Shown here piece after piece: positions 6,023 to 47,828 of a DNA stretch of 64,000 bases (its first letter is position 1; every line of letters starts with the position of its first letter). Source of the DNA: an uncultured Candidatus Saccharibacteria bacterium (lineage in GTDB: Bacteria; Patescibacteriota; WWE3; CAZQFB01); assembly GCA_964592525.1 (NCBI GenBank), contig CAZQFB010000002.1, positions 3,310-67,309 of the forward strand, in the 5' to 3' direction. Made by a program: the position numbers and the translations under genes. Under the pieces are notes generated by a model, which worked only from the letters and a program-made list of their open reading frames with translations, was not told where the DNA came from and did not search any database.

Positions 6023-6265
6023 ATGCTAACCACCATTGATGAACCTATTACTGTAGCTGGAGTTTATGAAGGAACTTCGTTCCTTCCCGCTGTATTCAAG
6101 TGGAAAAACGGTAAGTTCAAGGTGGAGGAGATTACTTTGGTGAGTGACTTACAGGATGGTGGAGTGAGAAAGCGTGTGTACAGTGTGGTTTCAGGAGATA
6201 CCTTGTACCGGCTCTGTTTTGATAGGGAGCAGGAGAGTTGGCGATTGGTGGCGATTGCCAATTAG
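6023..6265 (+). CDS. Hypothetical small protein upstream of Y-family polymerase
   Basis: 80-aa ORF 48 nt upstream of polymerase gene, same strand; possible accessory subunit (inference only). Confidence 0.35.
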   Translation: MLTTIDEPITVAGVYEGTSFLPAVFKWKNGKFKVEEITLVSDLQDGGVRKRVYSVVSGDTLYRLCFDREQESWRLVAIAN

Positions 6266-6312
6266 TCTGCCCCTGTTGGTAGACAGTTTTTAGTGATCAG
6301 TTCAGATGTTAT

Positions 6313-7596
6313 TTGCTTCATATGTCATCATTCATGAGCCGACGGCGAATCTTACACATTGATATCAATTCTTATTTTGCCATTCTGCTTCAGCAGGAAA
6401 ACCCCAAACTACGTGGTAAACCTGTTGGGGTGGTTAAATCAGCTGGTCGCCACTTGATTATTGCTGCCAGTAAGGAAGCTAAAGAAAAGGGGGTCAAGAC
6501 TGGTATGGCTTTAAGGGAAGCACGCCAGCTGTGCCCAAGCCTTATCAGCGTACCGGCTGAATTTGATTTTTATCTCTCGGCCACGCGGAAATTTTACGAT
6601 CTGCTTAAAAAATTTACCCCTAATTTTTACCCTTTTTCTTTGGATGAAGCGTTTTTGGATATTACCAATATGGAGCGTATCTATCCGAGTGCTAAAGAGT
6701 TGGGCCACCAGATACAGGATAAGGTAAAGGAGGTGTTAGGAGAGTGGGTTACCTGTAATGTGGGTATTAGCCATACTTATCTTTTGGCTAAAATAGCGGG
6801 TGAGATTAGCCCTAAAGGTAGTGTGACCGAGATTACGGCAGAAACAAAAGACAATGTTCTCAAAAGGGTGGGGTTTGATGATGTTTGTGGGGTGGGTAGG
6901 GGGTTGAGTAATAAATTACATCAGTTGGGAGTGACTACTCCTTATCAAATCAGGTCATTGCCGGAGGAGGTGTTGGTTGGGGCAGTTGGTCCTTTTTGGG
7001 CTAAGGAACTTAGGTTTATCAGTCAGGGTGAAGACTCTTGTACCCTTCGGGCTTTAGATACTGGGAACTTGGTTTTTAAATCACAAATGAAAAGTGTCAG
7101 CCGATCGGTAACTGGCTACAGGTTGTGCGACTCTGAAACAGAGATTAGGAGTATTATTTACAATCTTACACAGGAGGTTTGCTTTAAAGCTAGAAGCATG
7201 AATCTTGCGGGCAGGCATCTTGCTTTGATGCTTCAGGGTTCTAACAGGTCTTATGGATCCAGCATGACTTATTATAATCACTGTACTTTAAAGAAGTATT
7301 TAAACCTTACTGATGATGTGTTTTTTGTTATTTATAATCAGCTGTATAAGAACTGGAAACGTTCGTTTAAGGTCATTCGTTATTTAGTTAGGTTATCGGA
7401 CTTGACGCTTATAGACCAGCAAAGTCTGCCTTTGTTTGAGGCGGACAGGAAAAAAGAAAAGGTCTATCAGGCGATGGATAAACTGGCAGAAAAATATGGT
7501 CTTTTTACGGTGCGCTCGGGAGTGCTTATTGATACGCCAGTGTTAAGACCCGAGGTAACAGGTTATTTTGGCGACAAAGGGTACTACCTGCAGTAG
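6313..7596 (+). CDS. Y-family DNA polymerase (DinB/UmuC-like translesion polymerase)
   Basis: N-terminal ILHIDINSYFA, GKPVGVV, SLDEAFLDIT motifs typical of Y-family polymerases. Confidence 0.8.
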   Translation: MLHMSSFMSRRRILHIDINSYFAILLQQENPKLRGKPVGVVKSAGRHLIIAASKEAKEKGVKTGMALREARQLCPSLISVPAEFDFYLSATRKFYDLLKKFTPNFYPFSLDEAFLDITNMERIYPSAKELGHQIQDKVKEVLGEWVTCNVGISHTYLLAKIAGEISPKGSVTEITAETKDNVLKRVGFDDVCGVGRGLSNKLHQLGVTTPYQIRSLPEEVLVGAVGPFWAKELRFISQGEDSCTLRALDTGNLVFKSQMKSVSRSVTGYRLCDSETEIRSIIYNLTQEVCFKARSMNLAGRHLALMLQGSNRSYGSSMTYYNHCTLKKYLNLTDDVFFVIYNQLYKNWKRSFKVIRYLVRLSDLTLIDQQSLPLFEADRKKEKVYQAMDKLAEKYGLFTVRSGVLIDTPVLRPEVTGYFGDKGYYLQ

Positions 7597-7612
7597 TATA
7601 AGTAGAAAGCAA

Positions 7613-7679
7613 GCACCCCCGGGGGTTGTATTGCCATTATTGACGGGTGTTTACAACCCCCGGGGGTGCTTTGTTTTTT
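7613..7679 (+). terminator. Rho-independent terminator after Y-family polymerase (18-bp perfect inverted repeat plus T-run)
   Basis: gcacccccgggggttgta / tacaacccccgggggtgc arms followed by tttgtttttt. Confidence 0.7.
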
Positions 7680-7772
7680 CATACCTTGCTATATCCGATA
7701 GTTTGACAAGTGGGGGATGTCTGGTGTATTTTTACTCCCAATCACCAGATCAGACACCCTTGGAGGTGGAGC

Positions 7773-8486
7773 GTGCTAACAGTAAAAGGGAAGTCTTGGT
7801 TGTCTTTGGTCTTGTTCTTTCTGTTTGTTTGTGGGTTCGCTTGGTCCTTTCAAGCTTGGCAGGAAGAACCGGCAATTCCGGTGGTAGGTGAAGCTGTGAT
7901 TACTGAGGAGGTGTATGGTGACGGTTCTGCATCGCTAGGGAAATGGGTGCTAACGTACTACCCACCGGAAGTCTTCACTGTTTCAGCAGATTGTGGAAGG
8001 TGGCAAATGGCAGCCACACAACCTTTTACCCTAACGTTCTTGGGGTATAGTGAAGAGCCAGGCACCTTCCTGTTTATGTCCGAAGAAAGGGAGTTGAAGT
8101 ATTATAACCGTTCCTGTTGGTACCAGGAACTTGATGATTGTACGGAAGCACCGGAGACGAAGGCATCTGTGGCATCTGTTCCAGAGCCTCTATCAGAGGA
8201 GGATATCGGAGGTTATTACTCCTTTGATTCTGACTTACTCGGTGGTACTTACAGGATAGATTCTGTAAGAAAACCCTGGGAAGCTGGTTGGCCTAAGATC
8301 AGAATTAGATCACAGGATCCGTTCAAGGTGTATGAGAGAACCACCAAACCAGAAGTGATACGAGCCTTCAAGATTGGCGAGGTTGCCGAGAGATTGATGT
8401 GGTGTGGTACTGCGCTTGTGATTGTGTGTCTTGTTCTTCTGACTGTAGCGGTTATAGTTCATAATGATTACCGCAAGAGGAGTTGA
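7773..8486 (+). CDS. Bitopic surface protein, paralog 1 of a tandem triplicated family
   Basis: GTG start after GGAGGTGGAG; N-terminal hydrophobic helix, conserved AATQPFTLTFLGY and GGTYRIDSVRKPWEAGWPKIRIRS..PFKVY blocks, C-terminal TM. Confidence 0.6.
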   Translation: MLTVKGKSWLSLVLFFLFVCGFAWSFQAWQEEPAIPVVGEAVITEEVYGDGSASLGKWVLTYYPPEVFTVSADCGRWQMAATQPFTLTFLGYSEEPGTFLFMSEERELKYYNRSCWYQELDDCTEAPETKASVASVPEPLSEEDIGGYYSFDSDLLGGTYRIDSVRKPWEAGWPKIRIRSQDPFKVYERTTKPEVIRAFKIGEVAERLMWCGTALVIVCLVLLTVAVIVHNDYRKRS

Positions 8487-8496
8487 CTTTGTGAGG

Positions 8497-8535
8497 GAGT
8501 GGGGGTGCTGTCTGCCCTCACTCTTTATTTTATTC
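8497..8535 (+). terminator. Rho-independent terminator (9-bp stem gagtggggg/ccctcactc plus T-run), copy 1
   Basis: Hairpin immediately after paralog 1 stop, followed by tttattttattc. Confidence 0.6.
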
Positions 8536-8866
8536 ATCTTACCTCGAGCAACTTATTTGACTGATTATATCCAGGTGTTAATTTTGATAATCTGTTTTCA
8601 CTAATGACCAGCTAACCTTTAGTTTGATAAGTCTACAAACCCCCAGGGTTGGGTTTGCTAGTTTGACAGTGTGGTTGAGCAGGAGTATTTTTCTCTTACG
8701 CTCTTGAATAACCAAATGGAGGTGGAGAGGTGAGAGTCCAGAAGCTGCTTTTGGATGTAGCCAAGGTTTTGGCGGTGCTTTTACTTATGGGTTTGGCTGT
8801 TTGGGTGTATCTGGGATGGCAGGTAGAGCCGAAGCTTCCGGTACTGGGTGAGGCGACATATATTGA
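8497..8866. repeat. Direct repeat copy 1 (terminator + promoter region + 5' coding region), about 365 bp
   Basis: Near-identical to 9545-9904 by reading; covers terminator, intergenic region and first ~45 codons. Confidence 0.7.
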
Positions 8867-9536
8867 TTCGCTGATGCCCTTGTCAGAAGATATGGAGGGA
8901 AGATGGTTCTATGAAGGCTACCCTTCGGAAGTGTTTACACTTTCGACCGAGTGGCCTCGAATGCAGATTACTGCTACCGAGCCTTTCATGCTCCCCTATT
9001 GGTCCCAAAAGCTGATTACTGCTACTGAGCCTTTCACGCCCACCTACTGGGTTCGTATGGAGATGGCTGCTACCCAGCCTTTCACGCTGACCTATCTGGG
9101 TTATACACAAGTACCCACGTCCTATCTTTTCCAGCCCCAAGAAGCAGATCCTGTATCAGAACCGCTGACTTGGGGTTGGGGTCAGGGGATCAATGAACCA
9201 AGTCCTGCCTATGAAAATGAACGTTTCGCCCATAACACCTTGCCTCCAGGAGAGGTAGGTAGTTATTACTGGTTTGATTTTGAAGCAATGGGTGGGACCT
9301 GGCAGATAAGCTCGGAAAGAAAACCCCTTGAAGATGGTTGGCCTAAGCTACGGCTTAGAAGTGATCTGCCCTTTAAGGTCTACTCCAGGGCCATTGATGA
9401 GCAAGTGATCACAGCCAATCTGATTGCATCGGTGACTTCGATAATGTGGGTAGTAGGCTATGTAGTGGTCATCTTAGCTATGCTAGCTTATATTGTCAAA
9501 GTTGTGACCGATCTGAGAAAAGAAACCCAGGCCTGA
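8730..9536 (+). CDS. Bitopic surface protein, paralog 2 (with internal 3x repeat expansion)
   Basis: N-terminus MRVQKLLLDVAKVLAVLLLMGLAVW identical to paralog 3; triple ATEPF/ATQPF repeat; C-terminal TM. Confidence 0.65.
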   Translation: MRVQKLLLDVAKVLAVLLLMGLAVWVYLGWQVEPKLPVLGEATYIDSLMPLSEDMEGRWFYEGYPSEVFTLSTEWPRMQITATEPFMLPYWSQKLITATEPFTPTYWVRMEMAATQPFTLTYLGYTQVPTSYLFQPQEADPVSEPLTWGWGQGINEPSPAYENERFAHNTLPPGEVGSYYWFDFEAMGGTWQISSERKPLEDGWPKLRLRSDLPFKVYSRAIDEQVITANLIASVTSIMWVVGYVVVILAMLAYIVKVVTDLRKETQA

Positions 9537-9544
9537 GCAAGAAA

Positions 9545-9583
9545 GAGTGGGGGTGCTGTCTGCCCTCACTCTTTATTTTATTC
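9545..9583 (+). terminator. Rho-independent terminator, copy 2
   Basis: Same hairpin gagtggggg-loop-ccctcactc plus T-run after paralog 2. Confidence 0.6.
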
Positions 9584-9904
9584 ATCTTACCTCGAGCAAC
9601 TTATTTGACTGATTATATCCAGGTGTTAATTTTGATAATCTGTTTTCACTAATGACCAGCTAACCTTTAGTTTGATAAGTCTACAAACCCCCAGGGTTGG
9701 GTTTGCTAGTTTGACAGTGTGGTTGAGCAGGAGTATTTTTCTCTTACGCTCTTGAATAACCAAATGGAGGTGGAGAGGTGAGAGTCCAGAAGCTGCTTTT
9801 GGATGTAGCCAAGGTTTTGGCGGTGCTTTTACTTATGGGTTTGGCTGTTTGGGTGTATCTGGGATGGCAGGTAGAGCCGAAGCTTCCGGTACTGGGTGAG
9901 GCGA
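9545..9904. repeat. Direct repeat copy 2 (terminator + promoter region + 5' coding region)
   Basis: Near-identical to 8497-8866. Confidence 0.7.
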
Positions 9905-10497
9905 TATATGTGGATGAGCTGAAGCCCCTGTCAGAAGAGAAGGGGGGAAACTGGCTCTATGAAGGTTACCCTTCGGAAGTGTTCACCGTTTCTGCCGACG
10001 TGGCACAAATGCAGATTGCTGCCACCCAACCTTTCACGCTCACCTATCTGGGTTATACCAAAGTACCTGCGTCTTATCTTTTCCAGTCTGAAGAAAGACA
10101 GCATGAGGCAGAATTAGTGTCTTGGGTTCAGGAGATAAACCAGCATACGCCTGCCTGGAAGTATGAAACCTCACCTCCCGAGCCATTAACGGTTGCAGAG
10201 GTGGGTAGTTTTTACTGCTTTGATTTTGAAACTCTTGGTGGTACTTGGCAGATAAGTTCGCAGAGAAAACCCCTTGAAGCTGGTTGGCCTAAGCTACGGC
10301 TTAGAAGTGACCAACCCTTTAAGGTCTACTCCCGGACCATTGATGCGCAAGTGATCAAAGCCTATCGGATTAACTCGGTTCTTCCGAGAATACTAGTAGT
10401 AGCTGTGGTAGGTATGATTTTGTCTTTGCTAGCGGTAATTGTCATTGTTGGTACCGATCATACGGGAAAAGAAAGCAGTCAGGGAAAAGAAAACTAG
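9778..10497 (+). CDS. Bitopic surface protein, paralog 3
   Basis: Same N-terminus and conserved blocks as paralogs 1-2; C-terminal TM and short basic tail. Confidence 0.65.
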   Translation: MRVQKLLLDVAKVLAVLLLMGLAVWVYLGWQVEPKLPVLGEAIYVDELKPLSEEKGGNWLYEGYPSEVFTVSADVAQMQIAATQPFTLTYLGYTKVPASYLFQSEERQHEAELVSWVQEINQHTPAWKYETSPPEPLTVAEVGSFYCFDFETLGGTWQISSQRKPLEAGWPKLRLRSDQPFKVYSRTIDAQVIKAYRINSVLPRILVVAVVGMILSLLAVIVIVGTDHTGKESSQGKEN

Positions 10498-10511
10498 CGC
10501 TAAGCAAGAAA

Positions 10512-10551
10512 GAGTGGGGGTGCCTGTCTGCCCTCACTCTTATGTTTAATT
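10512..10551. terminator. Hairpin terminator copy 3, shared by convergent genes
   Basis: gagtggggg-loop-ccctcactc followed by T-rich run; overlaps the stop of the minus-strand gene 10546-12411. Confidence 0.5.
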
Positions 10552-12411
10552 AGCACATTTAATAACAGGTGCGGGACCAACAGAGCCTAACTCGGAATCA
10601 TTAATCGCTGAAGGTACACCCCATTTTCGACCAATGCGGTCATAGTAATCTAAATAACCAATAGTACAATTACCAAACCGGTGTTTAATTAACGTGTAAC
10701 TGCCATAAGACTTATAATCAGTTTGCCGATAGCTATTATTTTGGATAATATTCTTTATTTCCAGGTACTTATTCCAAACTAGTTTGGCGCTGCCCGCTTC
10801 GTTAAACAAACCGAACTTATAAGCATTTGAGGCTTGGTCAATAGTTGTAAAGTAGCTAAGCACATTAATTTTTCGGTTATTGTGGTTGTAAGCGGCAGCT
10901 TCAACCGCCCAAATGGCTGCCATCGTGGCTTGATTGGTTTCATTTCTGGTCGTCCAAGTATCGGTAGGAGCACTGGCTCCCGTGCCTTCGGTAATCCATA
11001 TTTCAGTGTTGTTTAAGCCAAAACTATCAAGTAACTCTCTGACGTAATCAGCTTTTGTGCCAAGCCAAGTATTATTAGTTTTTACCCAACTACTGCGGAA
11101 ATCGTTATAAGCATGAATAGGCACCACTTCCAATAGTGACAGTTTGTTTTGTCGCTTAAGTTCGGTCAACACTTGCTTGAGGAAATCGCAATTAAATTTA
11201 CCGCTGCTGCCTGTTTTGACATTACGGTTGTCATTGAAAATGTAGCAATCATCCAAAGCCAAACCAGAAATGGCCACTTTAGTTTGGGGGTTTTGGGCTT
11301 TAATGGCTTCAGCGACGGCAATAAACACATTAGCGTAACCGCTGGGGTTGCTGCCATAGCATCCACCAGCATCACCAGAGGATTTGGTGAGATCAAAATC
11401 AGCCTCATTCATAATTTCCCACGTATCCACATAAGGATGGAGCGCGACTTTTTGTTTTGCCCAAGTAGAAAATTGTTGTATTGAGGGTTGATCAGTTTTG
11501 TTACACTGCTTGTCGCCAGGCATACTAAAAGAAGGGTGCAGCGTAACTGCTATTTTTTTACCGGCTTGATTTAATTCTTTAAACAAGGGTATTTCCTGCG
11601 AACCCCAGTCATAAGGTGGTGGCAGAATGCGTGGGTGCACCCTCTCAATTGGACTTTGTTTGATTTGCTCAAGTACCGAAGCCGGTTCAACACCTAATAA
11701 ACGTACACTAAATTCAGGCTGCCCTGTACTGATAGTTGGTGGTTGCTCTGGCGCGGGGGGGTTAGTTGCCGGCGGTGTTGGGGGGGTACTAGGTGGTGCA
11801 GGATTTGGCTCCTCTGGAGTACTAGCTACTTGGCAGTATTCGCTGGCATATTCGCGCCAATACTTTTCACTAAGGGCGGTTAATTGCTCTGGCTGGGAAG
11901 TAGCTTGGCAGGTGACGGTTGCTGAAGGATACACCTGGGTACCTTTGACGGTATAACCAGAGTTAAGATTAAGTTGGTAGGGACTGCTAGTGGTGGTAGA
12001 CTGACCTGCTGGTGCTGGGGGGGTCGGTGCGGGATCGCTTAGCGGAACGTCACATTCACAGTAGCCGTAAAGATATTCATTCCATTCCGCCTTAGTTAAA
12101 CCACTACGAACATAGGGGGTTGTTTTAGCGTAAATTGTTTGGTTTGAAGAGTATCGTGTGCAGTAAAAAGAGGCACTGGAATAAACGAGCTTGCCTGATT
12201 TGTAGTGACGTCCATAATAAGTGATGCTGTATGGACAAGTGGCTGATGCAGCTTGGCTACTTAGCCTGGTGGGTTGGTTGTTGAGAGGTATTACTATTAA
12301 AGCGGCTAGAAGGATAATAAAAAGACCCACAAATTGGGCATTTTTCTTAAGAGTTAAAACTATGGCAGGAAAGTCTAACATTTGATCTAGTTTTATAGCT
12401 ATTGTATCCAT
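10546..12411 (-). CDS. Secreted/membrane-anchored glycoside hydrolase-like protein (clan GH-A-like TIM barrel) with Cys-rich N-terminal repeats and Pro/Thr linkers
   Basis: N-terminal TM, repeated EWNEYLYGYCECD / YWREYASEYCQ modules, PT-rich linkers, candidate catalytic motifs WEIMNEAD and IWITEGTG. Confidence 0.5.
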   Translation of the reverse strand: MDTIAIKLDQMLDFPAIVLTLKKNAQFVGLFIILLAALIVIPLNNQPTRLSSQAASATCPYSITYYGRHYKSGKLVYSSASFYCTRYSSNQTIYAKTTPYVRSGLTKAEWNEYLYGYCECDVPLSDPAPTPPAPAGQSTTTSSPYQLNLNSGYTVKGTQVYPSATVTCQATSQPEQLTALSEKYWREYASEYCQVASTPEEPNPAPPSTPPTPPATNPPAPEQPPTISTGQPEFSVRLLGVEPASVLEQIKQSPIERVHPRILPPPYDWGSQEIPLFKELNQAGKKIAVTLHPSFSMPGDKQCNKTDQPSIQQFSTWAKQKVALHPYVDTWEIMNEADFDLTKSSGDAGGCYGSNPSGYANVFIAVAEAIKAQNPQTKVAISGLALDDCYIFNDNRNVKTGSSGKFNCDFLKQVLTELKRQNKLSLLEVVPIHAYNDFRSSWVKTNNTWLGTKADYVRELLDSFGLNNTEIWITEGTGASAPTDTWTTRNETNQATMAAIWAVEAAAYNHNNRKINVLSYFTTIDQASNAYKFGLFNEAGSAKLVWNKYLEIKNIIQNNSYRQTDYKSYGSYTLIKHRFGNCTIGYLDYYDRIGRKWGVPSAINDSELGSVGPAPVIKCAN

Positions 12412-13152: not shown

Positions 13153-13860
13153 TTAAAAATGCTTGAGGATGCGCTCTAGCTCACCATCCAGAACCCGCTC
13201 TAGTACCTGAAAAGACTTATTCAACCGGTGATCTGTTATTCTGTTTTGGGGAAAGTTATAAGTGCGGATTTTTTCATTTCGCTCACCTGTGCCTACTTGC
13301 TCTCGCCTTAAGTCATCAACCCTTTGTTTATTCTGATCTTGCATCATTTGGTATAACTTAGCTGATAAAGTATTTAAGGCTTTAAGTTTATTTTGGGCTT
13401 GAGACCGTTCATCTTGGCAGGTGACAACTACTCCGGTGGGAAGATGGGTTATTCTAACGGCTGTTTCTACTTTGTTAACATTTTGTCCACCTGCGCCAGT
13501 GGCGCGAAAAGTGTCGTATTTTAGATCTTTGGGGTTGATTTCTAGGGTGGTATTTTGGCTTTGAGGTAAGACGGCTACGGTTACGGTTGAAGTATGAATT
13601 CTTCCAGATGACTCGGTTTTGGGTACTCTCTGTACACGGTGGACACCACTTTCGTGGTTTAAGCTTTTAAAGGCATCAGCGCCAACAATTTGGGCGCTAA
13701 GCACGTTGCCAAGATGGGTATCTTGGTTTTGGAAAGCCCAGCCTTTTTTGAAGGCGTATTTTTGATACATGCGAAACAATTCACTAGCAAATAAGCTGGC
13801 TTCCTCGCCACCAGCGCCCGCTCTAATCTCTAAGATAATTGTGTCTTTACAGGGAGTCAC
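13153..13860 (-). CDS. prfA: Peptide chain release factor 1, N-terminally short (domain 1 not encoded in this ORF)
   Basis: GGQ motif ([11 protein letters not shown]), RF1-type PxT motif (PKT in [10 protein letters not shown]), ORF begins at the position equivalent to the start of domain 2. Confidence 0.8.
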
Positions 13861-13865
13861 GGTTT

Positions 13866-14252
13866 TTATTTATCGGGGGGTAAAGAAGCGGCTTTTTTGG
13901 CAGCCAGAGCAGCTAATTTCGCTAAGTCACTGGTACCGCGCTGGTGTAATTTGGCTTTTTCTTTTTCCACCATCTCTCTTAAGGTTTTAGGGGTGTCTTT
14001 TTCAATATTTTTCTTTGCCTTACGTGTGGCTCTTTCCCGCGCTGATTTTTTGGCTAACTCCTGTTTTTTCTGAAATCTTTCCACCCGACCTTCGGTGTCA
14101 ATTAATTTTTGCTGACCAGTATAAAAGGGATGACATTCCGAACATATCTCAACCTTAATTTCAGGTAAGGTTGAACCAGTGGTAAAAGTATGACCACAAG
14201 AACAAATGACTTTGGCTGCTGGATAATAGGTGGGATGTATTTCTGGTTTCAT
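13866..14252 (-). CDS. rpmE: 50S ribosomal protein L31 with unusual ~65-aa Lys/Ala/Glu-rich C-terminal extension
   Basis: [11 protein letters not shown] ... CSCGHTF ... [11 protein letters not shown]31 core; same frame continues to stop at 13866, directly abutting prfA. Confidence 0.8.
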
Positions 14253-14382
14253 GGTTGTGTTTTCTAAGCGGCGGTATTTTAGCATTGAGGTTAATGATAT
14301 GCAATGGGTGCGGTTTATCACTCCTTAATCTTGACATGATAAAAGGAAGGGGTTGATAATAAACTGTTCCTAATTAATAAAT

Positions 14383-25575: not shown

Positions 25576-28032
25576 ATGGTAGAACAATTACCTCTTTTGG
25601 TCTTGTTTGTAATCTTACTTTCTTTTTACTTAGCAGTTCGTGCGGCAAGGATAAAAATGGAAGAGAAGAACCCTTCTACGTTTGAAGTAACCTTCTTCAA
25701 AATTCGTGTACCTAAAGGTAATACTAAACAGTCATTATCGGCGGAACAGATGTTTGCTTCACTTCACGGTTTGTTGCGGGAAAAAGATAGCATTCAAGAG
25801 CATATCAGCTTTGAAATTGAGTCTAGTGAAAACGGCATTAATTTTTATGTGGTGGCACCCAATGTGGTGAAAGAATTTGTGCTTGGTCAGATCTATGCTC
25901 AATACCCGGACGCCGAAATTAAAGAAGAAAAAGATTATGCGCAATTAGCTTCTGCGGAAGGAGTAGCTATTAGTGGAGCACGGATAACACAAGCTAAAGA
26001 CTATTATTTTCCTATTCGGACCTTCCGAGATTTTGATGTGGATCCTTTGGCAGCAATTACCGGATCTTTTGCGGAGATGAGTCGCGGGGGTCGGGTGTGG
26101 TGGCAGATTATCGCTAGACCTCTTCCAGATAAGTGGCAGGAGGCGGGTCATGAATATGTGGCTGTGCAGAGAGGCGAGAAGAAACCTGCCGTCAAGTTAA
26201 GCCTCAAAATCTTAATGGAAGAAGTGCGTAAAGAGATAGTGGTTATCTTCTCTTTCATCGTGAAAAATATTTTGTATGGACCACAAACGAAAGAAGAGGA
26301 AAAAAAGAAAGAAGAAAAAACCATAGAGGGGATGAAAAAAGACACACTCTCGTTAATAGAGCAAAAACTGACTAAATTAGGTTTTGAAGTGCATATGCGG
26401 GTGGTGGCTATTCATCCAGATGAACTAACAGCCAAAGATTATGTGAAAAGGGTTAATGCGGCTTTGCGTCAATATGCAGCAGCCAATGTGAATAGTTTTA
26501 AAGCAGAATTTGCCGAGGATACCACGAAGTTTTTAGAACATTACCGCCAACGCCAATTTCCAGCCACATCAAAATTGATATTAAATACCGAAGAATTAGC
26601 ATCCATCTACCATTTCCCAAATGAAACGGTGGAAACCCCAGCGATCTCGTGGGCTCCCGCTAGACATGCAGAACCACCCCTCAATTTACCTATTAGAGAA
26701 TGCACTTACTTTGGCAAAACAACTTACCGTGATAAGTTGATTACCTTTGGGATCAGAAGGGAAGATCGACGGCGTCACATGTACCTAATAGGGAAAACGG
26801 GTACGGGTAAAACGACGGTATTTAAAGCGATGATTAAACAGGATATGGATAACGGTGCGGGTTTTGCCGTGATTGATCCCCATGGACAATTGATTGATGA
26901 GTTGTTGGAGATGGTACCTGACCATCGTTTGGAGGATGTGGTTATTTTTGATCCGTCTGATACCACTAAACCGGTAGCCTTGAATTTGTTAGAAGCAAAC
27001 ACTGAAGATGTGGGACAGAAAAATTTGTTGGCTTCGGGGTTACTGATGGCTTTTAAAAAGAACTTTGAGTATTCATGGGGACCTAGACTAGAGTATTTGT
27101 TGAATAATGCCATTTTAACTCTGGTGGGGGTAGATAAAACGACACTGCTGGGTATCACGCGCTTGTTAAGTGATAAAAACTACCGCAAGTATATTACTTA
27201 TAAGGTGAAGGACCCAATATTAGCTGATTTTTGGGATAATGAGTACACTGAATTTCAACAGTCGCGTATTGCTACCGAAGCGGTAGCACCAATTCAAAAT
27301 AAAGTGGGTCGGTTTTTAGCTTCTTCAACGATTAGAAACATTTTAGGTCAAGCTCATTCCACGATTGATTTTGACGACATTATGAATAGTGGCAAAATGT
27401 TATTTATCACCTTATCTAAAGGCAGAATCGGTGAGGACAATGCTAATTTACTAGGTAGTTTATTGGTTTCACGTTTAAACTTTTCTGCAATGCGTCGGGT
27501 AGATATACCCGAAGAGCAGCGTCGGGATTTTAATCTTTATGTGGATGAGTTTCAAAACTTTGCTTCCGGTGATTTTGCTTCCATATTATCAGAAGCACGA
27601 AAATATAGATTGAACCTACATCTTACTCATCAGTATACCAAACAACTACCCGAGGAAATATTAGATGCTGTGGTCGGTAACGTGGGTACTTTAGTGGCTT
27701 TAACCCTAGGCGCTCCGGATGCATTAGCGCTGGAAAAAGAATTTGAACCTGTCTTCACGGCTAATGATCTTATCAACTTGGAAAAGTACCAGTTTTATAC
27801 TAAATTAATGATTGATCAGACCTCTTCTTTGCCTTTTTCAGGGATTACTATTCCTCCGCAAGAGTTTGAAGTGTTAACCGGAAACAGAGATAAAGCGGTG
27901 CAAAAGAGTCGAGAAAAGTATGGTCGTGAGAGAGAACAGGTGGAAGAAATTATTAAGCGCTGGCGAGTGCGCAACTTTGATTTGGGCATGGCCAAAGCGG
28001 AAGAAATAGTAGCTAATAGAGAAGGGAATTAG
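25576..28032 (+). CDS. Membrane-anchored P-loop NTPase, HerA/VirB4/TraC-like
   Basis: N-terminal TM, ~380-aa N-domain, Walker A LIGKTGTGKTT, IDPHGQL motif, Walker B LYVDEFQNF. Confidence 0.5.
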   Translation: MVEQLPLLVLFVILLSFYLAVRAARIKMEEKNPSTFEVTFFKIRVPKGNTKQSLSAEQMFASLHGLLREKDSIQEHISFEIESSENGINFYVVAPNVVKEFVLGQIYAQYPDAEIKEEKDYAQLASAEGVAISGARITQAKDYYFPIRTFRDFDVDPLAAITGSFAEMSRGGRVWWQIIARPLPDKWQEAGHEYVAVQRGEKKPAVKLSLKILMEEVRKEIVVIFSFIVKNILYGPQTKEEEKKKEEKTIEGMKKDTLSLIEQKLTKLGFEVHMRVVAIHPDELTAKDYVKRVNAALRQYAAANVNSFKAEFAEDTTKFLEHYRQRQFPATSKLILNTEELASIYHFPNETVETPAISWAPARHAEPPLNLPIRECTYFGKTTYRDKLITFGIRREDRRRHMYLIGKTGTGKTTVFKAMIKQDMDNGAGFAVIDPHGQLIDELLEMVPDHRLEDVVIFDPSDTTKPVALNLLEANTEDVGQKNLLASGLLMAFKKNFEYSWGPRLEYLLNNAILTLVGVDKTTLLGITRLLSDKNYRKYITYKVKDPILADFWDNEYTEFQQSRIATEAVAPIQNKVGRFLASSTIRNILGQAHSTIDFDDIMNSGKMLFITLSKGRIGEDNANLLGSLLVSRLNFSAMRRVDIPEEQRRDFNLYVDEFQNFASGDFASILSEARKYRLNLHLTHQYTKQLPEEILDAVVGNVGTLVALTLGAPDALALEKEFEPVFTANDLINLEKYQFYTKLMIDQTSSLPFSGITIPPQEFEVLTGNRDKAVQKSREKYGREREQVEEIIKRWRVRNFDLGMAKAEEIVANREGN

Positions 28033-31185: not shown

Positions 31186-31236
31186 GGAATTAAAAAAGAT
31201 TAGGCTCGCTACGAGCAATCGCAACTTAGCGAGCCT
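31186..31236 (-). terminator. Rho-independent terminator of pentapeptide gene A
   Basis: 9-bp perfect stem aggctcgct/agcgagcct overlapping the stop codon, followed on minus strand by a U-run. Confidence 0.55.
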
Positions 31237-31735
31237 ATTTATTGGGCCTTCTCCTGGTGCTTTGACCGAATCGGTAAAGTTGGTTGGGATCTATTAAGGC
31301 ACTTTGCCAGTTTTGCACCTTTTTGAGAATGGCGCCGTATAGCCTGGCTTCTCTAAGATCAGCTTGATCAAGATCTGCCCCGGTCAAGTCCACCCAGCAC
31401 AATTCTGTTTGGATACACAGGGCACCGATGAGAGTTGCCTTTATCAGATCGGCCCCACCTAGCATAGCTTGGCTAAGGTCCGCTCCAGTAAGGTTGGCTT
31501 GGGTGAGGTTAGCTCCGTTTAACCTTGCCTTACGGAGATTGGCCCCAGTTAGATTTGCACCAACTAGGCTAGCCTGACAAAGGTCAGCCTCGTGCAGGTC
31601 AGCCTCGCTCAAGTCAGCCCCCCGCAGGTCAATTACTTCGTCTGGGTGCTTCTGCCTCCAAGCTTGGATCAGAGGTGCTAAGGGTTCCCCTCTAGCGTGT
31701 GCCTCGCGAAGAATATCCTTCAGTGACTCTGCCAC
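31235..31735 (-). CDS. Pentapeptide-repeat protein A
   Basis: Tandem A(D/N)LxX pentapeptides; N-terminal 31 aa identical to gene B; GTG start after GGAGAAGG. Confidence 0.8.
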   Translation of the reverse strand: MAESLKDILREAHARGEPLAPLIQAWRQKHPDEVIDLRGADLSEADLHEADLCQASLVGANLTGANLRKARLNGANLTQANLTGADLSQAMLGGADLIKATLIGALCIQTELCWVDLTGADLDQADLREARLYGAILKKVQNWQSALIDPNQLYRFGQSTRRRPNK

Positions 31736-31775
31736 CTTCTCCCCCCTGTGGTTTTATTCAGCGGATAATGGTGGG

Positions 31776-31804
31776 ATTGTAGCACTAGGCTAACACGAGG
31801 GCAA
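31776..31804 (-). promoter_or_regulatory. Promoter candidate TTGCCC-N17-TACAAT for pentapeptide gene A (module repeated at ~32296 and ~32904)
   Basis: Read on minus strand about 40 nt upstream of the GTG start; same module precedes genes B and C. Confidence 0.4.
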
Positions 31805-31811
31805 TTTGGGG

Positions 31812-31846
31812 TAAGTAAAAAGCCCGTCGGTTGCTAGCCAACGGAC
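31812..31846 (-). terminator. Rho-independent terminator of pentapeptide gene B
   Basis: On minus strand gtccgttgg-ctagcaa-ccgacgggc followed by ttttacttac; 10 nt after the gene B stop. Confidence 0.6.
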
Positions 31847-31855
31847 CTTGCTCTC

Positions 31856-32257
31856 TCACTCTGAATTAGCTTCTTGGAAACGCTTGCGGTTGGTTCTGCC
31901 CATTTGGGCTACTTCCCACCCGCTAAACCCTGCCAACAGGGATCCGCCCATCTTGGCACCGGTGAAGATGGTGTCCTCATCACCCCTCGCCCCCCACAGG
32001 TCAGCCCCGGTCAGGTCAGCCCCGGTCAGGTCAGCCCCGGTCAGGTCAGCCCCGCTCAGGTTAGCTCTCCACAGGTCAGCCCCGGTCAGGTCAGACCACC
32101 TCAGGTCAGCCCCACTCAGGTCAGCCCCGGTCAGGTCAGCCCCGCTCAGGTTGACTATTGCTTCAGGATGCTTCTGCCTCCAGGCTTGGATCAGAGGTGC
32201 TAAGGGTTCCCCTCTAGCGTGTGCCTCGCGAAGAATATCCTTCAGTGACTCTGCCAC
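31856..32257 (-). CDS. Pentapeptide-repeat protein B
   Basis: Tandem GADLT/GADLS pentapeptides; N-terminus shared with A, C-terminal ~40 aa shared with C. Confidence 0.8.
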   Translation of the reverse strand: MAESLKDILREAHARGEPLAPLIQAWRQKHPEAIVNLSGADLTGADLSGADLRWSDLTGADLWRANLSGADLTGADLTGADLTGADLWGARGDEDTIFTGAKMGGSLLAGFSGWEVAQMGRTNRKRFQEANSE

Positions 32258-32500
32258 CTTCTCCCCCCTGTGGTTTTATTCAGCGGATAATGGTGGGATT
32301 GTAGCACTAGGCTAACACGAGGGCAATTTGGGGTAAGTAAAAAGCCCGTCGGTTGCTAGCCAACGGACCTTGCTCTCTCACTCTGAATTAGCTTCTTGGA
32401 AACGCTTGCGGTTGGTTCTGCCCATTTGGGCTACTTCCCACCCGCTAAACCCTGCCAACAGGGCTCTGCCCATCTTGGCACCGGTGAAGATGGTGCCCTC
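32165..32500. repeat. Direct repeat copy 2 (5' coding region of gene B + promoter + terminator + 3' coding region of gene C)
   Basis: Near-identical to 31643-31978. Confidence 0.7.
32334..32368 (-). terminator. Rho-independent terminator of pentapeptide gene C
   Basis: Same hairpin as 31812-31846 with U-run. Confidence 0.6.
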
Positions 32501-32863
32501 ATTACCCCGCGCCCACCTCAGGTCAGCCCCCCTTAAGTCAGCCTTGCTCAGGTTAGCCCAGCTCAGGTCAGCCTGCCTCAAATCAGCCCAGCTCAGGTCA
32601 GCCTGCCTCAAATCAGCCCCGCTCAGGTTAGCCCAGCTCAGATCAGCCCAGCTCAGGTCAGCCCCGCTCAGGTTAGCTTTCCACAGGTTAGCCCACCTCA
32701 GGTCAGCCTCCCACAGGTCAGCCTTGCTCAGGTTAGCCCTCCGCAGGTAAGCTCCAGTCAGATCAAGCGGTACTTCTGGGTGTTCCACTTCCCAGGTTTG
32801 ACGAGCCTTTGCCCAGGTATCAGCTCCCTGTAGTAGTGCTTGCACCAACCCAGTATCAGCCAC
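32378..32863 (-). CDS. Pentapeptide-repeat protein C
   Basis: Repeats ANLS/ADLS/ADLR x about 14; distinct N-terminus; C-terminus shared with B. Confidence 0.8.
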   Translation of the reverse strand: MADTGLVQALLQGADTWAKARQTWEVEHPEVPLDLTGAYLRRANLSKADLWEADLRWANLWKANLSGADLSWADLSWANLSGADLRQADLSWADLRQADLSWANLSKADLRGADLRWARGNEGTIFTGAKMGRALLAGFSGWEVAQMGRTNRKRFQEANSE

Positions 32864-32939
32864 TTTCTCCCCCTTGTGGGTATAGCCAACGGATAATGGT
32901 GGGATTGTAGCACTAGGTTAACACGAGGGCAATTTGGGG

Positions 32940-32974
32940 TAAGTAAAAAGCCCGTCGGTTGCTAGCCAACGGGC
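32940..32974 (-). terminator. Rho-independent terminator of small membrane-protein gene (third copy of the same hairpin module)
   Basis: gcccgtcgg-ttgctag-ccaacgggc; on minus strand followed by U-run; promoter module for gene C adjacent. Confidence 0.55.
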
Positions 32975-33506: not shown

Positions 33507-34439
33507 ATGGATATTGCGGAACTAGTTACTGACTATCTTGAATATTTGGAGCTGGAACGTAACCGCTCTAAAAAGACCCTGATCAACTATGATCATTACT
33601 TGCGCCGCTTTAGTGCCTTTTGTGCTACCCGACAGGTTAAAGCTTTAGCCGAGATTGATCTAGAGTTGGTACGCGCTTATCGCCTTTATCTAAACGAAGC
33701 GGATGAGCAAGGCGAACCAAGGCTTAAAAAAATCACCCAAAACTACCACCTGATCGCGCTACGCAATTACCTTAAATATTTAGCCAAAAAAGACATCCCC
33801 ACCCTTTCGCCCGAGAAAATTGAATTAATGGAGCCGGAAGCGAGAGAAATAAGCATTCTTAGACTAGATCAATTAGAGGATCTGTTAACCAAACCCGACC
33901 GCACGACTCTAAATGGCAAAAGAGATAAAGCGATTTTGGAAGTACTCTTTTCTACTGGTTTGCGGGTTAGCGAATTGGTTGGCTTGAACCGTAGTAGTAT
34001 TGACTTGGAAAGACGTGAGTTTAGCGTGGTGGGTAAACGGAGGAAGCGCCGAGTGGTGTTTTTGAGTCGGCGTGCTGCCGAGTACCTCACCGAGTGGCTG
34101 GAGGCACGAAAGGATAATTTTGAGCCCTTGTTTATTCGTCTTAAAGGTAAAAGAACCAAAGCCGACCCTTTGGGTTCTGACTTACGTCTTACCCCACGGA
34201 CAATCCAAAGAATTGTGCGCAGATATGCCACTATGGCGGGGATTGTCTCTCCGGTCACGCCTCATACTTTAAGGCATTCTTTTGCCACCGATTTGTTGCT
34301 AGGTGGAGCGGATGTTCGAGCGGTGCAGGAGCTTTTGGGGCACGAAAGTATTACTACTACGCAAATTTACACCCATTTTACCAACAAAGAATTACGCGAA
34401 GCCCACGAAAAGTACCACGCGACACGGCAAACCACTTAA
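33507..34439 (+). CDS. Tyrosine site-specific recombinase (XerC/XerD-like)
   Basis: N-terminal SAM-like domain; C-terminal RxxR...LRHSFAT...LGHESITTTQIYTH with catalytic Tyr. Confidence 0.85.
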   Translation: MDIAELVTDYLEYLELERNRSKKTLINYDHYLRRFSAFCATRQVKALAEIDLELVRAYRLYLNEADEQGEPRLKKITQNYHLIALRNYLKYLAKKDIPTLSPEKIELMEPEAREISILRLDQLEDLLTKPDRTTLNGKRDKAILEVLFSTGLRVSELVGLNRSSIDLERREFSVVGKRRKRRVVFLSRRAAEYLTEWLEARKDNFEPLFIRLKGKRTKADPLGSDLRLTPRTIQRIVRRYATMAGIVSPVTPHTLRHSFATDLLLGGADVRAVQELLGHESITTTQIYTHFTNKELREAHEKYHATRQTT

Positions 34440-43091: not shown

Positions 43092-44846
43092 ATGCCTGCC
43101 CCTGAACCTAATACCACTTCTGCGACCAGTAATTTGGCTGAGTCGTTCACCTCACCCGAGGAGTTGTTGCTCCAGCAAGGTTTATTAACCCCCGAGCAAT
43201 ATGAAGAAATAAAGCAAGAACACATTAATACTGGTCAAGCCATTGAAGATCTTATCTTAGCTCGTGGGTATGTTAATCCTTTGACCTTTAACCAAGCTAA
43301 AGCGAAAGTGTTGGATTTAGCTTATGTGGAAGTTAATGGTTTAGAGGTGCCTTCGTTTATTTTAAATTTTATCCCGGAAACACTAGCCGCTAAGTACCTG
43401 GTACTGCCTTTTAAGGAAGAGGGTGCCAGCTTGCATGTTGCCATGGCGGATCCGCTTGATCTTCAGGTCATCGCTATTGTGGAGAAAAAATCTGGGATGC
43501 GGGTTAAACCCTACTTAGCGGATAAAACTAATCTGGGCTATGCAATCCAACAACAATATAGTAAAGCTTTTGGTTCAGAAGTATCTGAAGCTCTTAAGGA
43601 AGTTGGTCAGCTCACCCTGAAACCAACGAAACTGGATACCTTAGAAGGTACGGAATTGAAGTCTTTGGAGAATGCTCCCGTGGCGAGGATTGTGGGTCAG
43701 ATACTCCAGTATGCGGTTCGCTCTGGTGCTTCTGATGTCCACATTGAACCCGGTGAAGATAAAACGAGAGTACGCTACCGGGTGGATGGTGTGATGTCAG
43801 AGAAGTTAAGTTTACCGCTCACTGTCCATGCTAACTTGGTTTCGCGCGTTAAGATCTTGTCCAATTTGAAGATTGATGAAAAACGGTTACCTCAAGATGG
43901 GCGGTTTAAGGTGCAAGTTGGCACTACGATTATTGACTTAAGGGTGTCAACCTTACCTACAGTCTACGGGGAAAAAGTGGTCATGCGTTTGTTGGAAGGT
44001 GCTGGGCGGGTGATGGGTATTCAGGAATTAGGCATGCGTGGTAGTGCCCTGAAAAGATTTGAGGCTAGTTTATCTAAAACTTTAGGTATGATTTTGGTTA
44101 CTGGTCCGACGGGGAGTGGTAAAACTAACACTTTAGCTTCGGGTTTGGCGAGAGTGAACACGATTAAGGTCAATGTTATTACCTTAGAGGATCCAGTGGA
44201 AATACGTATTCCTGGGGCTAACCAGGTGCAAATCAACCACACTGCCGGTTTAACTTTTGCTTCGGGTTTGCGTTCTATCTTACGACAAGACCCTGATATT
44301 ATTATGGTGGGTGAGATCAGGGATCAAGAAACAGCTGAATTAGCGGTGCATGCTTCCTTAACGGGTCATTTGGTCTTTTCCACCCTGCATACCAAGTCAG
44401 CCGCGGGAGCTCTGCCGCGGTTGTATGACATGAAAGTTGAACCTTTTTTATTGGCTTCTACGGTAAATCTAGTTATGGCGCAGCGTTTGGTGAGAACCCT
44501 GTGTAATAAGTGTAAACAACCTTACGTGCCCAGTGATGAGGTTAAAGCTGATATCAGCACAGTACTTGGTGCTTATCTTTCTCTGGATCTATCTAAGCTG
44601 CAGCTTTATAAACCAGTAGGTTGTAGTGAGTGTGGGTCGGAGGGTTATGCTGGTCGGACGGGAATTTTTGAGGTTTTAGAAGTTACCCCTCGGATTGGTC
44701 GGGCGATCATCCAACGCCAGCCCGAAGGAGAACTCCAAAAGATTGCCGTTGAGGAAGGCATGTTGCCCTTACTACTTGATGGTTATTTGAAAGTGGTTGA
44801 TGGTACAACGACCATTGAGGAAGTCTTAAGAGTAGCCAAGGATTAA
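43092..44846 (+). CDS. pilB: Type IV pilus assembly ATPase PilB (GspE family)
   Basis: N-terminal GspE_N domain, Walker A TGPTGSGKT, tetracysteine motif. Confidence 0.9.
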   Translation: MPAPEPNTTSATSNLAESFTSPEELLLQQGLLTPEQYEEIKQEHINTGQAIEDLILARGYVNPLTFNQAKAKVLDLAYVEVNGLEVPSFILNFIPETLAAKYLVLPFKEEGASLHVAMADPLDLQVIAIVEKKSGMRVKPYLADKTNLGYAIQQQYSKAFGSEVSEALKEVGQLTLKPTKLDTLEGTELKSLENAPVARIVGQILQYAVRSGASDVHIEPGEDKTRVRYRVDGVMSEKLSLPLTVHANLVSRVKILSNLKIDEKRLPQDGRFKVQVGTTIIDLRVSTLPTVYGEKVVMRLLEGAGRVMGIQELGMRGSALKRFEASLSKTLGMILVTGPTGSGKTNTLASGLARVNTIKVNVITLEDPVEIRIPGANQVQINHTAGLTFASGLRSILRQDPDIIMVGEIRDQETAELAVHASLTGHLVFSTLHTKSAAGALPRLYDMKVEPFLLASTVNLVMAQRLVRTLCNKCKQPYVPSDEVKADISTVLGAYLSLDLSKLQLYKPVGCSECGSEGYAGRTGIFEVLEVTPRIGRAIIQRQPEGELQKIAVEEGMLPLLLDGYLKVVDGTTTIEEVLRVAKD

Positions 44847-44849
44847 AAG

Positions 44850-45917
44850 ATGCAGACAAACCCAACCTTAGACGAAATATTAAAAGCGGTTATCAATCTC
44901 CGGGCATCGGATTTACATTTAACGGCGAATCTTCCTCCGATTGTACGGGTGGATGGTACGCTTAAGCCTTTAGAAGGCTTTGCCAGTTTAACTGATGAGC
45001 TGGTTAATGGCTTGGTTTTGGCGATGTTGGGAAAAGAAAAAACCGAACAGCTAAAGCAGAATCTAGAAGTGGATACTTCCTACGCACACGAACAACTGGC
45101 GCGTTTTAGAGTGAATGCCTATTTTCAGCGTTCCCATATAAGTGCTGCTTTGCGGTTGATTCCAGCCAAGATACCCTCTTTGCGGGAATTAGGTATGCCG
45201 GATATTATTGCCACTTTCTGCTCTTTACCTTATGGTTTGGTGCTGGTAACGGGACCAACCGGTCAGGGTAAATCAACCACCATTGCTGCCATGATCCAGT
45301 TGATTAATGAAACCCGTAATGTCCATATTGTCACCATTGAAGATCCGATTGAGTATGTGTTTACCCCCCAAAAAGCGTTAATAACCCAGCGGGAAATGCA
45401 TCATGATACCCATTCTTGGGAGGTGGCTTTGCGCAGTTCACTGCGGGAAGATCCTAATGTTGTTTTGGTGGGAGAGATGCGTGATTTTGAAACCATTGCC
45501 GCAGCGATAACCATTGCCGAAACTGGTCATTTGGTTTTTGCCACCCTGCACACGAGTAGTGCTTCCCAGTCAATTGACCGGATTATTGATGTTTTCCCGG
45601 AAAACCAGCAACAGCAAGTTCGGGTCCAGTTATCGGCGATGCTGGAAGCGGTCATCTCGCAACGGCTGTTACCAAGACTCAACGGTGGGCGGGTGGCAGC
45701 CGTTGAAGTGATGACGGCGACTCCGGCGGTGCGGAATATTATTCGTGAAGGCAAAACGCATCAGGTGGATAATGTCATTGCCACTTCGGCTGATGTGGGG
45801 ATGTTGTCGTATGAATATTCGCTGGCTAATTTAGTAAAAAGCCGGGTTATTGCTGAAGAGGCAGCACTGGCGGCTACCACCAGACCGGAAGAATTAACAC
45901 GCTTACTTAAGAGGTAA
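44850..45917 (+). CDS. pilT: Type IV pilus retraction ATPase PilT
   Basis: 355 aa, Walker A TGPTGQGKSTT, PilT-size without N-terminal GspE_N domain. Confidence 0.88.
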   Translation: MQTNPTLDEILKAVINLRASDLHLTANLPPIVRVDGTLKPLEGFASLTDELVNGLVLAMLGKEKTEQLKQNLEVDTSYAHEQLARFRVNAYFQRSHISAALRLIPAKIPSLRELGMPDIIATFCSLPYGLVLVTGPTGQGKSTTIAAMIQLINETRNVHIVTIEDPIEYVFTPQKALITQREMHHDTHSWEVALRSSLREDPNVVLVGEMRDFETIAAAITIAETGHLVFATLHTSSASQSIDRIIDVFPENQQQQVRVQLSAMLEAVISQRLLPRLNGGRVAAVEVMTATPAVRNIIREGKTHQVDNVIATSADVGMLSYEYSLANLVKSRVIAEEAALAATTRPEELTRLLKR

Positions 45918-45924
45918 AATTGCC

Positions 45925-47127: not shown

Positions 47128-47209
47128 GGAGCGTTTGACCGATGCCAAAAGCAGTGTGCTATACTTTTGATGATATGAATAATCTTGCCCAGAGAGGGGG
47201 TGAATCTTA

Positions 47210-47689: not shown

Positions 47690-47828
47690 GCTCTTGGTAA
47701 GCTAGCCTGTTGGCTAAAGAGAATGACATTATTAGGGAAAAGCTCCTTAAATGGGGTTTTTTCCTTTTTCTGAAGGTTTTTATCTTTTCAGGCAGGGCGG
47801 AAAATATGGCGCGTGTTACTATTTAATC

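Follow-up and report, generated by a model that had tools for sequence, protein, structure and literature searches.

A tandem trio of orphan genes for predicted envelope proteins, two of them sharing an identical 360-bp module, in an uncultured Candidatus Saccharibacteria bacterium

Background

Arrays of paralogous surface-protein genes that evolve by gene conversion are known from the variable lipoproteins of Mycoplasma and from msp2 of Anaplasma. In histidine kinases of the PhoQ/CitA type, a periplasmic sensor domain is flanked by two transmembrane (TM) helices. In bacteria of the candidate phyla radiation (CPR), the CPR-enriched protein families are mostly unannotated membrane or extracellular proteins with a proposed role in cell-cell interaction, and 106 such families are widespread across the CPR (Meheust et al. 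2019, PMC6744442). Here, three consecutive genes, designated g1, g2, and g3, are described from a 64-kb stretch of contig CAZQFB010000002.1 (assembly GCA_964592525.1) of an uncultured Candidatus Saccharibacteria bacterium. This whole stretch is referred to as the window, and all coordinates are positions in it. An earlier note on the same DNA had described the genes as a recently amplified, independently transcribed family of surface proteins, possibly variable surface antigens or factors for interaction with a host.

The trio resembles the CPR-enriched families in the type of organism, poor annotation, the presence of TM helices, and a predicted membrane or extracellular location, but it is detectable in one genome only. 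With the Mycoplasma and Anaplasma arrays it shares clustered putative envelope paralogues, mosaic identity, a small genome, and probable host dependence. In contrast to these arrays, lipobox, silent cassettes, and switch tracts are lacking, each copy has its own promoter-like site, and the ratio of nonsynonymous to synonymous substitution rates (dN/dS) is below 1. The order of first TM helix, external domain of about 150-200 aa, and second TM helix is reminiscent of PhoQ/CitA-type sensors, but a HAMP or kinase module is absent, there is no match to PDC/Cache or other sensor families of Pfam, and the domain is predicted to be mostly beta.

Results and Discussion

Three tandem genes

The genes g1 (7773-8486), g2 (8730-9536), and g3 (9778-10497) are located on the forward strand, start with GTG, and specify proteins of 237, 268, and 239 aa, respectively. 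Proteins recorded at NCBI are identical to all three, in the case of g1 to the 237-aa form starting at GTG-7773. Thus, the three consecutive genes of 230-270 aa of the earlier note, with an N-terminal helix and a C-terminal TM helix, were recovered. The proteins align end to end with 67% identity between g2 and g3 and 39-46% between g1, the oldest paralogue, and the other two. Two blocks are conserved in all three, AATQPFTLT[YF]LGY (block A) and GGT[WY].I.S.RKP.E.GWPK.R.RS..PFKVY.R (block B), and the blocks quoted in the earlier note are present in this alignment. A profile search of all six-frame open reading frames (ORFs) of the window revealed neither a fourth copy nor a fragment of one.

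Hydropathy analysis according to Kyte and Doolittle detected one hydrophobic segment at the N-terminus (approximately residues 6-26) and one near the C-terminus of each protein; in g1, these are located at about residues 8-26 and 211-229. Only 7-15 residues follow the C-terminal segment. Between the N-terminal hydrophobic helix and the C-terminal TM helix, each protein has a beta-rich, aromatic middle part.

An identical block in diverged copies

Comparison of the g2 and g3 units revealed a very uneven distribution of identity. The sequences 8497-8856 and 9545-9904, both on the forward strand, are identical at 360 of 360 positions. The first copy spans the g1 terminator from the first base of its stem, the 233-nt spacer with promoter-like site, the Shine-Dalgarno (SD) sequence, and the GTG to codon 42 of g2; the second comprises the g2 terminator, spacer, promoter-like site, SD sequence, and the first 42 codons of g3. 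A near-identical segment of about 365 bp had been noted before; it is an exact repeat of 360 bp. The repeat has a sharp edge, since divergence of 14-50% per 50-nt window starts at 8857, and outside of the block the two units are 78-85% identical. The chance of finding 360 identical bases at the divergence of about 18% seen in the rest of the unit is approximately 1e-31.

Substitution rates were determined from codon alignments by the Nei-Gojobori method. For g2 versus g3, dS was 0.41 and dN 0.22 (dN/dS 0.54). For g1 versus g3, dS was about 2.6, which is saturated, and dN 0.54 (dN/dS about 0.2). For g1 versus g2, dN was 0.62, but dS was undefined by saturation and hence dN/dS not defined. Because dS is saturated between g1 and the other two genes and still 0.41 between g2 and g3, the duplications are old, and dN/dS values of 0.2 to 0.54 show that the genes are real and constrained. 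By these estimates, the family is old and under purifying selection, and its members are real coding genes. The proposal of a recent amplification did not hold up; only the 5' module is young, and it is most likely a homogenisation tract rather than a sign of recent amplification. The simplest reading of the 360-bp block would be a recent tract of gene conversion or unequal exchange laid over an older tandem duplication of 1048 bp.

A second region of unexpected similarity was found near the 3' ends of the genes. In the conserved block at the C-terminus (columns 181-210 of the alignment), synonymous differences to g1 are significantly less frequent, with a proportion (pS) of 0.31-0.40 as compared to about 0.8 outside of it (Fisher p = 6e-5 and 3e-4). 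This represents a second, older trace of concerted evolution. Identity tracts far above the background and with sharp edges, as expected for concerted evolution, are therefore a feature of this family. Directly behind the identical block, in codons 43-60 (alignment columns 31-60), 11.5 nonsynonymous and 1.5 synonymous differences were counted, numbers too small for significance.

Mutagenesis by a diversity-generating retroelement (DGR) was considered and rejected: mismatches between all repeat pairs are distributed over all four bases, transitions and transversions are mixed, and an adenine bias is not apparent. The window contains 52 ORFs of at least 150 aa, part of which were scanned for the presence of a reverse transcriptase. 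Silent cassettes, long homopolymer or simple-repeat switch tracts, and machinery for antigenic variation are not visible at the locus. Neither a DGR signature nor a phase-variation tract, silent cassette, or structured RNA was found, and there is no indication of an unusual mechanism. The direct repeats of 360 bp on both sides of the g2 body are predicted to be a substrate for homologous deletion or duplication of this gene, and they may bring about copy-number instability or assembly breaks at the locus.

Expression signals

All three genes are preceded by a promoter-like site of the type TTGACA-17/18-TATTTT. In a consensus scan, the site of g1 was placed at 7700-7732 (AGTTTGACA-18 nt-TATTTT) and that of g2 at 8660-8691 (AGTTTGACA-17 nt-TATTTT), both on the forward strand. 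The window contains the 9-mer AGTTTGACA only three times, in each case ahead of one of these genes, where 0.73 occurrences are expected by chance. The 10-mer GGAGGTGGAG, representing the putative SD sequence, is likewise present three times, always just ahead of the start of a family gene (0.08 expected). The SD sequence of g1 is located at 7762-7771 on the forward strand, and in all three genes the GGAGG core lies 6-7 nt before the GTG. In the earlier note, a promoter-like region and ribosome binding site had been described for g2 and g3 alone.

Each gene is followed by a terminator hairpin formed by GAGTGGGGGTGC and GCCCTCACTC, with 12-13 bp, a T-rich tail, and z-scores of -3.7 to -4.2. The stem is common to all three, in line with the shared terminator proposed before, and its 12-mer core GAGTGGGGGTGC has three occurrences in the window, all of them at family terminators. 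The hairpins on the forward strand are located at 8494-8526 for g1 (-19.6 kcal/mol), where the repeat starts, at 9542-9574 for g2 (-20.3 kcal/mol), and at 10510-10541 for g3 (-24.8 kcal/mol). The last one has the stem of the other two, but its loop is one base longer and its tail has diverged; it faces the 3' end of a convergent gene for a 621-aa protein. Upstream of g1, the dinB-like gene (6313-7596) is followed by a strong terminator of its own on the forward strand (7599-7683; 32-nt inverted-repeat arms, -50.8 kcal/mol, z-score -6.3), which is predicted to shield g1 from upstream transcription.

The short promoter, SD, and terminator motifs around g1 survive despite saturated synonymous sites between g1 and g2 or g3, which argues that they are functional. 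Since each gene has its own promoter-like site, SD sequence, and terminator, g1, g2, and g3 look like three monocistronic units, and the independent transcription suggested in the earlier note is supported to this extent. As the promoter, SD, and signal modules of g2 and g3 are identical, like expression and export of these two genes would be implied.

The 233-nt spacer is not considered to contain a structured RNA (z-score -0.99), and a search of the window against Rfam yielded a tRNA only. In the 5' leaders of g2 and g3 (8692-8760 and 9740-9808), a hairpin is predicted that pairs the SD sequence and GTG with the upstream sequence UCUCUUAC (-23.9 kcal/mol, z-score -3.0). The leader of g1 has no comparable hairpin (z-score +1.15). 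The structure may modulate translation of g2 and g3, but the two copies are identical and thus provide no comparative support for it.

Verification of the tandem arrangement

An assembly artefact had been named in the earlier note as a possible source of error. In this case, variants of a single gene from different strains, or a repeat that was collapsed or expanded, would have been laid out wrongly as three copies. The sequence originates from a metagenome-type assembly, and an exact repeat of 360 bp exceeds typical k-mers and many reads. Logan unitigs of two other sequencing runs were compared with the locus. Unitig L022 (SRR11845625) matches 7568-8526 exactly and ends 30 nt into the first repeat copy. 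L045 (SRR11845624; 9875-12341) and L046 (SRR11845625; 9875-11747) are also exact matches, and both start 30 nt before the end of the second copy. The start of the g3 unitig had been forecast from the repeat coordinates before the look-up, and the forecast matched. Presumably, the k-mer size of Logan is 31; if this is right, breaks at k-1 = 30 nt are exactly those expected in a de Bruijn graph where two paths enter and two paths leave a genuine repeat.

A unitig for the body of g2 was not retrieved from Logan. However, g2 and g3 are not alleles of one locus, because the downstream flank of g2 is the spacer and not the 621-aa gene, and with a dS of 0.41 to saturation the copies are too diverged to represent duplicated reads. 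If the distinct g3 terminator is also taken into account, no path other than the tandem order is consistent with these properties; it alone uses the end of g1, both repeat copies, and both gene bodies. It is therefore extremely unlikely that the trio was created by assembly. The left end of L022 at 7568 is located within the 3' end of dinB, although the respective 30-mer is unique in the window, which hints at strain variation or low coverage in SRR11845625.

Properties of the encoded proteins

Topology was assessed from Kyte-Doolittle hydropathy and the positive-inside rule. The central 170-200 aa are thereby predicted to reside outside the cytoplasm, which supports the surface location assumed before. 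An invariant G21-x-A23-W closes the first hydrophobic segment. G21-x-A23 is a possible signal-peptidase site; without cleavage, a two-TM hairpin with both ends in the cytoplasm would result.

A recurring unit, phi-x-phi-x-x-x-[QED]PF-x-phi-x-[YF], occurs in block A (MQIAATQPFTLTY) as well as in block B (LRLRSDQPFKVYS) of every copy, one time each, and may be read as a beta hairpin. In block A of g2 the unit is found three times, due to an internal tandem of 3 x 48 bp (8946-9095, forward strand) that was not described in the earlier note. It specifies an in-frame 16-aa unit in the versions MQITATEPFMLPYW, KLITATEPFTPTYW, and MEMAATQPFTLTYL. Since the copies are just 76-78% identical in DNA, this tandem does not appear to be recent. 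At least 13 aromatic residues are invariant across the three proteins, as is a basic stripe, R-K-P-x-E-x-G-W-P-K-x-R-x-R-S, inside an otherwise acidic ectodomain (20-24 D+E versus 12-15 K+R). There are six cysteines in g1 and none in g2.

The overall layout, with an export signal at the N-terminus, an external domain, a TM segment near the C-terminus, and a short tail, is also characteristic of sortase (LPXTG) and exosortase (PEP-CTERM) substrates. In g1 the tail is basic (RKRS), and in g2 this is partly the case. A search with the expression LP.T[GASN] found no match in the three proteins, and the residues preceding the TM segment are not conserved as a motif. PEP occurs at residue 137 of g1 and 134 of g3, about 65-75 residues before the TM segment and thus not at the place typical for PEP-CTERM proteins, and is absent from g2. 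A lipobox ([LVI][ASTVI][GAS]C) is not present in the first 40 residues of any of the proteins. The pilin motif (G|FTLxE; PF07963, N_methyl) is found in pilin genes of the window but not in g1-g3, whose N-termini read MLTVKGKSW and MRVQKLLLD. The segment YYWFDFEAMGGTWQI is reminiscent of the choline-binding repeat WYYFDxxGxMxTGW; a relationship was rejected, as PF01473 was not listed even at E <= 10 and only one such segment is present per protein.

Search for relatives

Searches covered a total of about 15 billion public proteins. Among 5.8 billion clusters, a word-seeded phmmer search returned only g3 and g2, and each of the three proteins forms a singleton cluster. When 1.84 billion representatives were scanned in full with a HMMER profile, the family and five other matches were all that was detected. 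The latter are repeat proteins of 724-3168 aa, the scores of which sum over 3-6 short stretches, and were considered spurious. Pfam-A contained no family matching the full proteins at E <= 0.1, and the ectodomains gave just one chance match of 12.9 bits at E <= 10. Matches in NCBIfam covered the TM region only and scored well under the cut-offs. The best hits in PHROGs and among PDB sequences (profile search) had E-values of 0.18 and 0.61, respectively, and PADLOC gave none. Pattern and tblastn scans of GTDB genomes, IMG/VR, and JGI metagenomes revealed nothing, and the same applies to tblastn searches of phages and plasmids.

Structure predictions were performed with AlphaFold2 from the 3-sequence alignment. 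For full-length g3, the predicted local distance difference test (pLDDT) score was 40 overall; only the terminal helices were confident, with block means of about 58-76. The ectodomain alone yielded 36. In both low-confidence models, short beta strands coincide with the conserved blocks and are missing from the variable middle; no fold is claimed. With the full-length g3 model, Foldseek found nothing in PDB better than E 1.6 and a TM-score below 0.2.

These searches of profiles, sequences, structures, and contigs agree with the earlier statement that no family is recognised. Homology to a known housekeeping family, which had been mentioned there as an argument against a novel surface family, was looked for and not found. 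The family itself is new, with no relative in the databases searched; its kind is familiar, being that of a tandem envelope family of one CPR lineage whose copies are made uniform by gene conversion. In 185,579 species representatives and the JGI metagenomes, the relatives closest to the DinB protein are from Patescibacteria metagenome-assembled genomes and are only 42-53% identical over the full length, so the lineage is poorly sampled. These relatives and the type IV pilus cluster without PilQ (see below) place the organism in the CPR. Sparse sampling of the host lineage would explain much, if only part, of the orphan status.

Possible function

The best explanation of the data is a lineage-restricted trio of monocistronic genes for outward-facing envelope proteins that are subject to gene conversion and have a role in binding or as scaffold. 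As a whole, we regard this explanation as moderately probable. Its structural and evolutionary part alone is very probable, while a non-enzymatic binding or scaffold function can be put forward only tentatively. Two old tandem duplications with a unit of 1048 bp would have created the array, and gene conversion would keep it partly uniform, the latest event being the 360-bp tract over the terminator, promoter, SD, and signal-sequence modules of g2 and g3. The N-terminal segment, either as an uncleaved signal anchor or as a signal peptide cut at the invariant G-x-A, would direct Sec-dependent export of a domain of about 170-200 aa. The C-terminal TM helix would then hold the protein on the outer face of the cytoplasmic membrane, leaving a cytoplasmic tail of 7-15 residues. 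Because a cytoplasmic output domain is absent, the proteins would be expected to act outside the cell or in the membrane. Three features favour binding or scaffolding of a surface or host ligand: a surface of conserved aromatic and basic residues, an acidic linker that varies, and the expansion of the hairpin unit in g2. In this scheme, the invariant basic strand face (RKP.E.GWPK.R.RS) and the conserved aromatic residues would constitute the binding surface, and the paralogues would differ in the acidic linker and in the segment near the N-terminus. Such a role would fit the proposed part of CPR-enriched families in cell-cell interaction.

Several observations weigh against this explanation. 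Export, surface exposure, and a ligand are predictions from sequence. Basic residues directly ahead of the second TM segment blur the positive-inside rule for this segment, and the AlphaFold models (pLDDT 40 and 36) provide no usable fold, the best Foldseek E-value being 1.6. The family comes from one genome, so that conservation over time is seen through comparison of paralogues only. Among 39 dinB-anchored loci of Patescibacteria (21 from GTDB and 18 from JGI), no family member was found at E < 1, and in the 21 GTDB-representative loci no analogue with two TM segments is located beside dinB. Genes similar to g1-g3 are also missing next to relatives of the 621-aa protein in their polysaccharide clusters. 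A 331-aa ORF with two TM segments in one of the loci (L016) was dismissed, as it aligns only over the TM helix (hhalign probability 1.4%).

A more specific version, which is quite unlikely, would be an ectodomain with a new fold of strand-QPF-strand hairpins, two per protein and four in g2, serving an episymbiont as receptor for an anionic polymer. The ligand would be a host cell-wall glycopolymer or extracellular DNA, in the latter case as a substitute for ComEA. The three paralogues would have different specificities, and RecA-mediated loss or gain of g2 via the 360-bp repeats would lead to copy-number variation in the population.

Alternatively, the proteins could be envelope housekeeping or biogenesis factors of the lineage, such as spacers, chaperones, or accessory subunits of a membrane machine. 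Overall purifying selection, retention of both TM helices in all copies, and the core chromosomal neighbourhood (SSB, CtpA, dinB, L31, RF, HisRS, DnaB) without adjacent mobile-element genes would fit such a role. For a factor of this kind, relatives should be present in Patescibacteria, but they were found in 0 of the 39 related loci and nowhere in the 15 billion proteins. Three diverged, separately transcribed copies are odd for a stoichiometric machine subunit, and linkage to the pilus or type IV secretion system-like clusters of the window is not seen, so that we consider a housekeeping role unlikely. Carriage by a mobile element or prophage, for instance of superinfection-exclusion or receptor-masking membrane proteins, is very improbable. 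Orphan genes and tandem duplications are common in accessory regions, and many exclusion proteins are small membrane proteins, but matches to phages or plasmids were not obtained, and GC content and skew resemble those of the surroundings. Moreover, integrase, transposase, and tRNA genes are missing at the locus, the only tRNA and the only integrase of the window being located at 20.5 kb and 33.5 kb, respectively.

Tandem immunity paralogues are common beside polymorphic effectors, and the trio could thus be an array for immunity to, or protection against, a toxin or an enzyme that acts outside the cytoplasm. An example would be the convergently encoded 621-aa protein, which is hydrolase-like and secreted according to prediction. 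Tandem, diverged, separately expressed paralogues with a membrane anchor and a predicted outward orientation would suit this purpose, and they adjoin an orphan secreted protein with dockerin-bearing and polysaccharide-cluster relatives of its C-terminal domain. The adjacency is convergent and not operonic, however, such neighbours are missing beside distant homologues of the 621-aa protein, and a toxin domain was not recognised. PADLOC gave no match, but its library covers anti-phage defence and not toxin immunity. On balance, an immunity function appears highly unlikely. None of the four alternatives, including the assembly artefact discussed above, was favoured by any test.

As it stands, g1-g3 represent one more orphan envelope family in a group already rich in them, and the main concrete value of the locus is a clean case of old tandem duplicates with a recently homogenised regulatory and signal-sequence module. 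The molecular basis of episymbiosis in the CPR is largely unknown. If the proteins are surface-exposed binders, they would be candidates for host-attachment, nutrient-capture, or DNA-capture factors of an uncultured CPR lineage. Interest would rise only if the ectodomain turned out to be a new host- or polymer-binding fold.

Other features of the window

The window is a piece of ordinary chromosome harbouring genes for SSB, a CtpA-like protease, a Y-family polymerase, L31, RF1, HisRS, DnaB, EF-P, GyrA, GyrB, TrmD, and RNase III. The 621-aa protein downstream of g3 (10546-12411, reverse strand, convergent) is an orphan in which a TM helix at the N-terminus is combined with modules containing Cys and with Pro-rich linkers. 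For its C-terminal 372 aa, relatives of 25-29% identity, one of them with a dockerin, are encoded inside polysaccharide-biosynthesis clusters, and the protein is possibly a surface glycan-processing enzyme. As a conserved functional partner of the trio it was rejected, since its distant relatives have no g1-g3-like neighbours. On the other side of the trio (6023-7596), an 80-aa DUF6504 protein (Pfam 20.8 bits, gathering threshold 24.2) is encoded directly upstream of the Y-family polymerase, a pairing reminiscent of mutagenesis cassettes.

A second tandem trio was detected at 31235-32863 on the reverse strand. It consists of pentapeptide-repeat genes (166, 133, and 161 aa) in a GC island of 49-58%, with mosaic sharing of N- and C-termini and an exact 280-bp repeat (31662-31941 and 32184-32463). 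The island is located about 650 bp from a gene for a XerC/D-type integrase (33507-34439). All repeated 31-mers of the window lie in this trio or at the g1-g3 locus, with the exception of a short stretch at 32919-32972, just past the pentapeptide-repeat genes.

At 13153-14321 on the reverse strand, an RF1-like ORF of 235 aa is present in which PxT (PKT) and GGQ are kept, domain 1 is missing, and only positions 101-194 of the Pfam PCRF model are matched. Its GTG is located 5 nt past the stop codon of an L31 ORF with a 65-aa Lys-rich C-terminal extension ending in SLPPDK. The release factor could be genuinely short, or the arrangement could reflect translational coupling or a frameshift.

A complete type IV pilus cluster extends from 43092 to 59287. 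It comprises genes for PilB, a PilT-like ATPase, PilC, three N_methyl pilins, a prepilin peptidase, and PilM/N/O, as well as two SdrD_B-domain proteins of 760-810 aa. A secretin (PilQ) was not among the ORFs scanned, and a secretin-less pilus is typical of CPR bacteria. Finally, a VirD4/TrwB-like ATPase of 818 aa is encoded at 25576-28032.

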